Assembly (NCBI GenBank): GCA_041658325.1 | Contig: JBBAAI010000001.1 | Coordinates: forward strand, 27,427-91,426 | Length of the DNA: 64,000 nt | Source: Minisyncoccota bacterium | Lineage (GTDB): Bacteria; Patescibacteriota; Minisyncoccia; Phycocordibacterales; UBA9973 | Reading direction: 5' to 3' | In this document: one piece after another, positions 10,870-13,800 of the stretch | Numbering within the stretch: the stretch's first letter is position 1 | How the letters are laid out: every line of letters starts with the position of its first letter | The notes under the pieces: generated by a model | Told to the model about the DNA's origin: nothing | What the model saw: the letters and a program-made list of their open reading frames with translations, nothing else | Database searches by the model: none | Program-made: the position numbers and the translations under genes

Positions 10870-13800
10870 TTAACAGGAATCGAAACATTAGTACTTCTCA
10901 GCTTAACGCATTGCTGCGCTTCCACTTAAAGCCTATCAACGTGATCATCTCTCACGGTTCTTAACGATTCCTAATCTTGAAGCTGGCTTCCCTCTTAGAT
11001 GCTTTCAGAGGTTATCCATTCCCGACATAGCTACCGAGCATTGCCCTTGGCAGGACAGCTCGTACACCAGAGGTCAGTTCACTCCGGTCCTCTCGTACTA
11101 GGAGCAAATCTTCTCAAGAATCAACGAGTGCAGTAGATAGGAGACCAACCTGTCTCACGCATCTACGTTTTACACTCCGATTTAATTCGGAGACCTTCAT
11201 TACTGGAGGGATCGGACTGTGACATATTCCAAAAATCTTGGAATGCTAACATTCAGTCTCTACGGGCAGAATATAATTCTTTCCCTCGGCGTTATCCTTC
11301 GTTTTCACGAATAGGATTTCTCCGATATAAGTTAGCTTGCCACTTTGCATTTCTACAAAGTGCCGCCGTGATACTGCAAACAGCAGTATGGTTAATTTCG
11401 ATTAAAACAGTTCATTTTTTAGTTCATGAATTCCTCTGAGGGTTCAAACTGTTTAAGATTCAAGTTTCCTTAATTCCTAAACGGTCTGAACCCAGCTCGC
11501 GTACCTTTTTAATTGGCGAACAGCCAAACGCTTGGCAGCTTCTCCACCGCCGCGCTAAGGTGAGCCGACATCGAGGTGCCGAACTCCGCCGTCGATATGA
11601 ACTCTTGGGCGGAACTAGCCTGTTATCCCTAGAGTAGCTTTTATCCGTTAATCTTCCACCGCGTCTAACACGGGTGGTCGGTTCACTATGTTCTACTTTC
11701 GTACCTGCTCGGGATGTACCCCTTACAGTCAAGCAATCTTGTGCCATTACACTATCGGCACGGTTTCCATTCGCGCCTAGATTACCTTTAAACCCCTCCT
11801 TTACTTTTTAGGAGGGTACAGCCCCAGTAAAACTATCCACCATATACTGTTTCAATACGTTTTTGCCGTATTGGTTAGAACATGCCTTCGGTAAGAATGG
11901 TATTTCACTGACGAGTAGATTACAGCCAAAACCGTAAACATCAGACCTCTCCCATCTATTCTACGCAGACAAAAAACATGCTCAATATAAAGTTATAGTA
12001 AAGCTTCTAGGGTCTTTTCGTCTAACTGCACTTAACCGGCATCTTCACCGGTATTGTATTTTCACCGAGCTGGTCCCCGAGACAGTTCTCCAGTCATTAC
12101 ACCATTCGTGCGCGTCGGAACTTACCCGACAAGGTATTTCGCTACCTTAGGACCGTTATAGTTACGGCCGACATTCACCAGGGCTTACAACAATCACCAA
12201 TAATATTGCTACTACCAACGTCGTTGTTTGACCTTCTGGCATTGGTCAGGTGTCACCCCCTATACATCCTCTTGCGAGTTCGCAGGGAGCTGTGTTTTTG
12301 GTAAACAGTTGCCAGAGATACTTTCGCTGCGGCCCTCTAAATTAATAGAGGGCAAGCCTTATCCCGAAGTTACGGCTGCTTTTTTGCCGAGTTCCTTGGG
12401 GACCACTCACTCGTTCGTCTTGGTCTACTCGACCTGATCACCTGTGTCGGTTTGCGGTACGGATTCTATATTCATAAGTTTAGAGAGTTTTCTTGGAAGC
12501 GTGCTTTATATCATTATCCTATGCCGAAGCATAAAACTTTTTGCTTCTCTTTCATGCGCCATCTAAGGCACTCTACGGATTTTCCTATAGAGCATAATCA
12601 AGACACAAACTTCAAATCCAATAATGAGCGATACATACTACACTCCGTCATCCCGTCACAAAATACAGAAGTCAGGGAATATTAACCCTGTGTCCATCGA
12701 GTACGGCTTTCGCCATTCCCTTAGGCCCGACTAACCCTTGGATGATTGACATTACCAAGGAAACCTTGATCTTTCGACGTGGGGCGTTCTCAACCCCATT
12801 GCGGTTACTTGTGCCAACATTCTTACTTCCACACGCTCCAGAAGCTCTCACGAGTCTTCCTTCACAGCAGAGTGGAACACTCTCCTACCACGTGAATTTC
12901 CCGAAGGAAATTCACATCCTCAAATTCGGTAATATACTTAGCCCCAATTATTTTCGACGCAAAATCTCTAGATGAGTGAGCTGTTACGCTATCTTTAAAG
13001 GATGGCTGCTTCTAAGCCAACCTCCTCATTGTTAAAGAAACTTCACCTTCTTGACTTACACTTAGTATATATTTAGGGACCTTATTTTGAGATCCGGGCT
13101 GTTTCCCTTTTGGCCAATGGAGCTTCGCCCCCATGGCCTAACTGCCAAGCTATGGTTTCTGGTATTCGGAGTTTGATAGGTTTCGCGAGATTGCTCCCTG
13201 TCGAAACCTTCCAGTGCTCTACCCCCAGAAAAAACACTTGACGCTAGCCCTAAAGCTATTTCGGAGAGAACCAGCTATTACCAGGTTCGATTAGCTTTTC
13301 ACTCCTTACCACAAGTCATCGGAAGACGTTGTACGATCTACCCGTTCGGACCTCCATAGGTCTTTCGACCTACTTCATCCTGCTCATGGCAAGCTCACCT
13401 GGCTTCGGGTCTTATGCATGTTACCAATTACGCGCTATTAACACTCGGTTTCCCTATGGCTGCGCTGTTTTAGCCAGCTTAGCCGAGCAGCATGCATAAA
13501 CTCGTTGGCTCATTCTTCAATAGGCACGCCGTTGTGGATATAAATACCCACTTCGACTCCTTGTAGACATACGGTTTCAGGTCTATTTCACCGCCCTAAT
13601 CGGGCTGCTTTTCACCTTTCCCTCACGGTACTTGTTCACTATCGATCTTTAAGAGTATTTAGCCTTAGCGGTTAGTCCCGCCAGATTCCCCCCGGCTATT
13701 CATGTCCTGGGGTACTCAAGAACAACAATAAAAGAGATAAATTATTTTCACTTACGGGACTATCACCTCCTATGGTGTTGCTTTCCAGCAACTTCAGTTA

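Follow-up and report, generated by a model that had tools for sequence, protein, structure and literature searches.

How can a 23S ribosomal RNA (rRNA) gene that is interrupted within the peptidyl-transferase centre give a working ribosome? The question is raised by a 64,000-nucleotide (nt) stretch of contig JBBAAI010000001.1 from a Minisyncoccota bacterium (the window; all positions refer to it), in which the 23S gene on the minus strand carries a 321-nt insert. An earlier note, made from the letters alone, had proposed a group I intron without an open reading frame (ORF) at the site equivalent to E. coli 2593. We find that the insert is very probably a group I intron that is removed from the 23S rRNA. 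Homologous introns in other genomes, a secondary structure that is 94% paired across 37 of them and an internal guide sequence support this assignment. An annotation of the 23S gene must then show two exons, and only with splicing can the organism form a functional peptidyl-transferase centre.

Read on the minus strand, the conserved 23S sequence ending in GCUGGGUUCAGACCGU stops at 11481 and resumes at 11159 with CGUGAGACAGGUUGG / CGUGAGACAGGUUGGUC. The insert occupies exactly 11480 to 11160, between GGGUUCAGACCGU and CGUGAGACAG. It starts with UUAGG and ends with GAUG, so that the base before it is U and its own last base is G, as the earlier note had read. These boundaries leave no ambiguity: moving the cut to either side fails to give back the conserved ACCGU/CGUGAG. 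The predicted junction of the spliced exons is GACCGUCGUGAG. The joined exons align without gaps to the E. coli RefSeq 23S gene, with the junction after the U of GAACGU/CGUGAGACAG. This U is nt 2595 in an E. coli gene copy of 2906 nt, which we take to be U2593 in the conventional 2904-nt numbering, judging by the landmarks U2585 and A2602; the site given in the earlier note held when compared with E. coli 23S. The insert thus splits helix 93 between U2593 and C2594, beside A2602, in the catalytic centre. With a length of 3271 nt, the gene matches the Rfam model (2925 nt) from end to end, which bears out the claim that the flanking conserved blocks are intact and collinear. Since 321 of the 346 nt in excess of the model belong to the insert, it is the only large insertion in the gene. 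A scan of the 321 nt found no ORF longer than 34 amino acids, in agreement with the suggestion that no endonuclease is encoded.

Inserts at the same site were sought in one genome per GTDB species with the pattern GAGCTGGGTTYAGAMCGTD (GAGCUGGGUUYAGAMCGU followed by D, any base that is not C), which catches any insertion after U2593. At least 120 loci were found, most with inserts at this position (L2593). Among the 120 matches listed, 88 contain an insert that is complete and has G as its last base, followed by CGTGAGACAG, and every complete L2593 insert listed has the terminal G. The L2593 inserts among these matches form two groups. Class A inserts start with AAAUUACAUUGCGUUC or AGAUCACACUGCGUCC, occur among the matches listed in Acidimicrobiia, Omnitrophota and some Saccharibacteria, and have a guide that lies some 10 nt from the 5' splice site. 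Class B consists of at least 57 homologous L2593 introns, almost all from Patescibacteria, and includes the intron in the window. Its members share the motifs CACGGCGG, AUAUCGGUGAAA, ACCGAGGGAA, CCCGUAGAGACURAAYGU and AYAGUCC; UCAGAGGAA is also a conserved motif. Most members are ORF-less yet conserved. Of the 104 columns with conservation of 85% or more, the window copy deviates from the family consensus in one, by a change that keeps a G.U pair, and the sequence shows no sign of decay.

Membership of the window copy was also seen with a leave-one-out profile hidden Markov model (HMM) built from 36 class-B introns with the window copy excluded. Its single match in the window (nhmmer) runs from 11478 to 11192 on the minus strand and covers HMM positions 3-288 of 295 (162 bits, E 1.8e-49). 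These relatives bear directly on whether the insert is an assembly error or chimera, a concern for a contig that probably comes from a metagenome assembly. The same nucleotide is interrupted by the same architecture in dozens of independently assembled genomes, and the flanking exons are collinear and complete. The chance of an artefact is therefore negligible.

The structure was modelled with two alignments. The larger (A2) holds 37 ORF-less class-B introns and tests a model of P1, P10, P2 to P9 and P9.0; the smaller (A1) holds 10 close relatives and tests the full structure specific to the window, numbered over 347 nt (exon 1-13, intron 14-334). In A2, 94.1% of cells are paired, versus 35-41% after shifting the partners by 1-3 columns. 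Compensatory changes on both sides occur in 34 of 53 pairs, and none of 500 shuffles reaches any of these measures. The A1 structure is 88% paired, with compensatory changes at 60 of 108 pairs. From the 10 close relatives, RNAalifold recovered unaided P10, P2, P4, P5, P6, P7, P8 and P9 together with a long hairpin at the 5' end. The core helices P3 to P8 are all present in canonical order, with the P3/P7 pseudoknot, so the P1-P9 fold with a guide pairing the exon end, which the earlier note had named among the checks to make, is found in full.

Covariation is densest in P2, P3, P8 and P9, where nearly every pair covaries. P7 has two covarying pairs and reads GACUA/UAGUC in 22 sequences, GACUG/CAGUC in 15 and once GACGA/UCGUC; one pair is AU in 22 and GC in 15, and another shows a UA-to-GC swap. 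By analogy with general group I architecture, P7 is the presumed guanosine-binding helix. P9.0 is paired at all three positions in 45 of 57 class-B introns, in four main types (ATC/GAT, ATG/CAT, TTG/CAA and TTC/GAA). The peripheral hairpins P1b to P1d show covariation within the close subfamily in A1, with weaker support than the core. A pairing of CGGCG with CGCCG of P4' was also considered and dropped, as most members have UACCGA for P4' whereas CACGGCGG does not vary.

The guide sequence CACGGCGG stands directly before P2, with the P10 strand and then the P1 strand in canonical order. The 37 aligned introns show effectively no variation in it, apart from a single mismatch in one of them, and its two pairings are 99% and 95% paired, the latter being P10, in which (U)CACG pairs with CGUG(A). 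The splice-site U lies opposite G in 37 of 37 introns. Across classes, the guide follows the exon: hosts with GAACGU have GCGUU(C), and the single class-A intron from a GACCGU host (L071) has GCGGUC. Its position is unusual for being 110 nt inside the window intron rather than near the 5' end; in class B as a whole it lies 57 to about 250 nt inside.

Two other fates of the insert would leave these features without a purpose. The insert could be an expansion segment that stays unspliced in the mature ribosome, and the title of a reference cited in PMC11270868 (Tsurumaki et al. 2024) speaks of an unspliced 23S group I intron in Chlamydiales. Here, the insert splits helix 93 in the catalytic centre next to A2602, and the guide, P10, P9.0 and the terminal G are kept across at least 57 introns, which points to selection for splicing; retention is extremely improbable. 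Only slightly less remote is an intervening sequence cut out by RNase III and not religated, so that the 23S rRNA ends up in fragments, as it does in Salmonella or Leptospira. Such sequences do exist in bacterial 23S genes, and a passage of PMC11270868 assigns short insertions at two other sites in the candidate phyla radiation (CPR) to this type. The ends of the window insert, however, do not pair together, since P1a and the exon helix take up the 5' end and P9.0 the 3' end. Known sites of this type are H25 and H45, whereas the insert lies in helix 93, within the peptidyl-transferase centre; this explanation also leaves the conserved ribozyme core, the guide sequence and the terminal G unaccounted for.

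Several points weigh against a self-splicing group I intron. At curated thresholds, the Rfam scan of the whole window reported only the large-subunit (LSU) and 5S rRNAs and not the intron. In a local scan with E-value thresholds, the group I model RF00028 (Intron_gpI) matched 11389-11193 over its full length (model 1-253; 32.5 bits, E 1.2e-6), a score that fails the gathering value of 50. The Rfam check proposed in the earlier note thus gave a full-length match at a significant E-value and fell short of the curated score. P1 has only 4 bp in the window copy, which also has an A/G mismatch in P4, common to the close subfamily, and a C/A mismatch in P9. No covariation test applies to P1 and P10 inside the class, where the exons do not vary. 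The active conformation would need a rearrangement, because the favoured fold buries the splice-site U in the long 5' hairpin. Finally, splicing itself is a prediction from the comparison of sequences and structures.

The low Rfam score is a limit of the model seed and not a structural criterion. None of four class-B relatives tested (L005, L057, L084 and L010) was reported at the gathering threshold, whereas two class-A members tested pass it with 58 and 54 bits. The minus-strand insert also folds more stably than its shuffles (minimum free energy (MFE) z-score -7.3). Taken alone, this z-score and the RF00028 score are suggestive only. Because the Rfam match is below gathering, it is the comparison with relatives, rather than the covariance model, that provides the proof of intron identity.

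The short P1 and the two helix mismatches, together with the sequestration of the 5' splice site in a stable alternative hairpin and the lack of an ORF in the insert, could also mean that the element is group I by descent and no longer self-splicing. It would then depend on a protein acting in trans, for example a maturase-like LAGLIDADG protein encoded by a different intron or a host RNA chaperone, or it would splice poorly. Maturase-assisted 23S introns are known in Thermotoga (PMC3984707). We consider this reading unlikely. The core agrees with the family consensus at all but one of 104 conserved columns, which argues against decay, and most family members are conserved without an ORF. Protein help may still play a part; it would refine the intron explanation without contradicting it.

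For the self-splicing group I intron that we favour, the steps would be as follows. The intron would be transcribed within the 23S precursor and remove itself by the standard two-step, guanosine-initiated transesterification. An exogenous G would dock in P7 and attack after U2593. The terminal G of the intron would then take the place of the exogenous G in P7, and the freed 3'-OH of U2593 would attack the 3' splice site, held by P10 and P9.0. Splicing would restore helix 93 and the peptidyl-transferase loop. Guanosine-dependent self-splicing of the window intron is a prediction; the modelled parts of the intron are listed in Table 1.

Table 1. Positions of the 23S rRNA gene, the predicted intron and its modelled parts in the window
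Feature	Position	Strand	Basis or remark
23S rRNA gene (host gene)	10869..14139	-	Rfam LSU_rRNA_bacteria, 2375 bits, model 1-2925 (full length)
23S 5' exon	11481-14139	-	
Last 13 nt of 5' exon (GGGUUCAGACCGU)	11481..11493	-	-4..-1 (CCGU) in P1; -13..-5 pair with second exon-binding segment
Predicted group I intron, 321 nt, no ORF, after E. coli U2593	11160..11480	-	Sequence, ORF scan, RF00028, HMM
P1a hairpin, 11 bp, GAAA loop, directly after 5' splice site	11454..11479	-	RNAalifold; 9/11 pairs compensatory in A1
AACAG preceding UUUGAACCC	11449-11453	-	Can extend pairing to -1, alternative to P1
Second exon-binding segment UUUGAACCC	11440..11448	-	Pairs with exon -13..-5; 9/9 complementary in window
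P1b, P1c, P1d, peripheral hairpins in P1 loop (11371..11430)	11411-11430, 11392-11405, 11371-11389	-	MFE fold
Internal guide sequence CACG/GCGG	11363..11370	-	Alignment of 37 introns, RNAalifold (P10)
P10: CACG with 3' exon CGUG	11367-11370 with 11156-11159	-	
P1: GCGG with 5' exon CCGU	11363-11366 with 11481-11484	-	U.G wobble at splice site
P2 hairpin, 9 bp, GAAA tetraloop	11341..11362	-	Compensatory: 9/9 pairs A1, 6/6 A2
P3 5' strand GCUAAC	11331..11336	-	Partner 11245-11250; 6/6 pairs compensatory in A2
P4-P5-P6 domain	11264..11325	-	RNAalifold and alignments
P4	11320-11325 with 11286-11291	-	
P5/P5a	11295-11316	-	
P6	11264-11285	-	Loop is endonuclease gene position in L084, L046
P7 5' strand GACUG	11254-11258	-	P7 100% paired in A2
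J7/3 AAU, 3 nt	between P7 5' strand and P3 3' strand	-	
P3 3' strand GUUAGC	11245-11250	-	
P8 hairpin, 7 bp	11226..11244	-	6/6 pairs compensatory in A2
P7 3' strand CAGUC, presumed guanosine-binding helix	11215..11219	-	Alignment
3' domain (P9.0, P9, P9.1)	11161..11212	-	
P9.0: AUC with GAU	11210-11212 with 11161-11163	-	Covariation in class B
P9, GUAA loop	11194-11209	-	5/6 pairs compensatory in A2
P9.1	11175-11192	-	
Terminal G (omega-G), last intron base	11160	-	
First 4 nt of 3' exon (CGUG), P10 partner	11156..11159	-	
23S 3' exon	10869-11159	-	
5S rRNA	10676-10782		Downstream of 23S; Rfam

Of wider interest is one feature, the conserved domain between the 5' splice site and the guide, in which a second segment of the intron covaries with the exon. 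This second exon-binding segment is present in all 57 class-B introns, with complementarity at 8 or more of 9 positions and the consensus UYUGARYCC upstream of CACGGCGG. At exon position -8, C or U is always matched by G or A in the segment (53 and 4 cases among the 57); in the 37-intron alignment the pair is CG in 33 and UA in 4. The 5' domain, aligned as an exon-intron hairpin, is 92.4% paired, with compensatory changes at 12 of 24 pairs. The same segment was sought in class-A introns, in which only scattered matches at chance level were found.

The long exon-intron hairpin is the thermodynamically favoured fold, and it competes with P1 for exon bases -1 to -4. It cannot be the catalytic P1, because it places A opposite the splice-site U, as its partner, in 34 of the 37 sequences. 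As a candidate for P1 it was rejected also for having no conserved adjoining P10 strand and for the variation of its ACAG part. An AACAG:CUGUU pairing in the active conformer is possible. If the segment keeps -13 to -5 while the guide takes -4 to -1, the model allows both pairings at once. Together they would form a duplex of 13 bp with a nick, connected through long loops and formally a pseudoknot.

These pairings suggest an order of events. The 5' domain would first capture the last 13 exon bases in the long hairpin. Exon bases -4 to -1 would then be handed to the guide sequence, while UUUGAACCC keeps -13 to -5 paired, and the resulting nicked duplex would keep the 5' exon, which is very large, tethered during both steps of splicing. 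We put forward this role of the conserved 5' domain, capture followed by hand-off and tethering, as a tentative proposal that may well prove wrong. A group I intron that uses such a second segment to hold a structured 5' exon of 2.6 kb would be unusual, provided that the segment is functional. The hand-off device, if true, could couple splicing to folding of the peptidyl-transferase centre. It is more doubtful whether class B amounts to a structurally distinct, undescribed subclass of group I introns, defined by a deep internal guide, a bipartite exon recognition like that of group II introns and a programmed transfer of the splice site, out of an inhibitory hairpin and into P1.

The resemblance between intron and exon strands has a bearing on annotation. 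The Rfam LSU model aligns an intron segment, AACAGUUU (11446-11491 region, minus strand), as the 3' strand of helix 93 (GACAGUUC). This misalignment arises because the exon-binding segment of the intron resembles that strand, and automatic rRNA annotation could place the exon boundary some 45 nt off at this point. Around the gene, neither a tRNA gene (ARAGORN) nor a 16S rRNA (Rfam) was found in the whole 64-kb window (1-64000), so the 23S-5S pair stands alone, and protein-coding ORFs lie directly upstream of the 23S gene, from 14498. It appears that the 16S gene is separated from the rest of the rRNA operon.

The 23S exons are 95-98% identical to loci in metagenome-assembled genomes of Patescibacteria annotated as Nomurabacteria, Vogelbacteria and Paceibacteria, which agrees with the assignment of the host to CPR/Patescibacteria. 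The introns of those loci have only 70-82% identity with the window intron. Intron content also varies among genomes with such similar exons. Four close relatives (L010, L112, L116 and L057) have further breaks in the alignment of exon 1, at about E. coli 1740 and 1920-1950, and these breaks indicate putative additional introns that the window gene lacks. One relative, L084, has an RNase P class A RNA at 3947-4294 (plus strand), about 3 kb downstream of its 23S-5S pair (103 bits versus a gathering score of 100); no such RNA is found in the window at Rfam gathering thresholds.

Two of the class-B relatives carry an endonuclease gene. In L084 and L046, the P6 loop holds an ORF of 150-173 amino acids of the LAGLIDADG_1 type, homologous to I-MsoI (E 2.8e-29) and I-CreI (E 1.7e-17). 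These homologues support the earlier description of L2593 as a homing site of the I-CreI family. The P6 loop in the window is short, with no remnant of a LAGLIDADG gene. Because it has no endonuclease gene, the window intron cannot home by itself, and we infer that it was either inherited vertically or mobilised by I-CreI-like enzymes of related introns.

Other relatives carry tRNA genes in their inserts. L108 has a tRNA-Arg(TCT) at 2644-2719 (minus strand) inside its intron (2515-2963), in the P6 loop region, and L009 a tRNA-Leu(TAG) at 1882-1960 (minus strand) inside an insert at 1820-2539 (both ARAGORN). Both nested genes are complete and on the same strand as the 23S gene. The P6 insertions of L092, L049, L074 and L110 contain fragments that are tRNA-like or end in CCA, with inverted repeats of the TTTGTRAAYTT type on either side. 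The window intron has no nested tRNA gene, tRNA-like fragment or flanking inverted repeat of that kind.

Two known systems offer parallels to the 5' domain, each by analogy only. Group II introns recognize their exons in a bipartite manner, with exon-binding sites 1 and 2 (EBS1/EBS2) pairing to intron-binding sites 1 and 2 (IBS1/IBS2). In the window intron, two separate segments likewise pair with adjacent stretches of the 5' exon, but the intron class differs. In Tetrahymena pre-rRNA, P1 alternates with P(-1), in which the competitor is an exon-exon hairpin. Here too a helix competes at the 5' splice site, with an intron segment as the competitor.

As a kind of element, the intron is known, since group I introns at position 2593 in CPR 23S genes are already catalogued. 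Passages of PMC11270868 describe position 2593 as a recurrent insertion site in these genes, report group I introns at 3'-region sites (23IS6-14) with LAGLIDADG_1 ORFs at 2593, and state that such insertions are removed from transcripts. The comparison with rRNA-intron catalogues that the earlier note called for thus finds the site listed, and intron-bearing rRNAs are indeed a known trait of CPR; group I introns are widespread in tRNA and rRNA genes of Patescibacteria (PMC13011429). The introns described in those passages (and by Brown et al. 2015 as cited there) share clade, gene, site and intron class with the one in the window, whose relatives carry the same LAGLIDADG_1 type while it has no ORF itself. 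The same passages describe no secondary structure, internal guide or 5' exon-binding domain. Our literature search found no description of the internal guide of this class, its second exon-binding segment, its lack of P7.1/P7.2 or its sub-threshold Rfam scores, which is weak evidence of absence. The survey in PMC11270868 classified introns by Rfam matches. Surveys at curated Rfam thresholds would undercount class-B rRNA introns, because the window intron and the four tested relatives are missed.

Other bacterial 23S genes have group I introns in domains IV and V, at L1931 in Thermotoga, at L1917 and L1951 in Coxiella, and in Simkania (PMC1995217 and passages of PMC11270868), some of them self-splicing. 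They differ from the window intron in insertion site and host, and most of them carry an endonuclease gene. The insertion site is identical in the L2593 introns of chloroplasts and cyanobacteria (Synechococcus/Thermosynechococcus, PMC1995217), of which the cyanobacterial ones have a P7.1/P7.2 extension of about 65 nt and a short P2 (PMC1995217). The window intron has no P7.1/P7.2, with only the 3 nt AAU between P7 and P3'. It also lacks the single-motif LAGLIDADG gene of I-CreI-type L2593 introns, which its relatives L084 and L046 have. Among the latter type is Cr.LSU, which we take to be the chloroplast L2593 intron with an I-CreI-family endonuclease. Because P7.1/P7.2 are absent, the window intron represents a different ribozyme lineage at the same site. 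Its ribozyme belongs to a separate class dominated by Patescibacteria, and not to the type of the chloroplast and cyanobacterial I-CreI introns.

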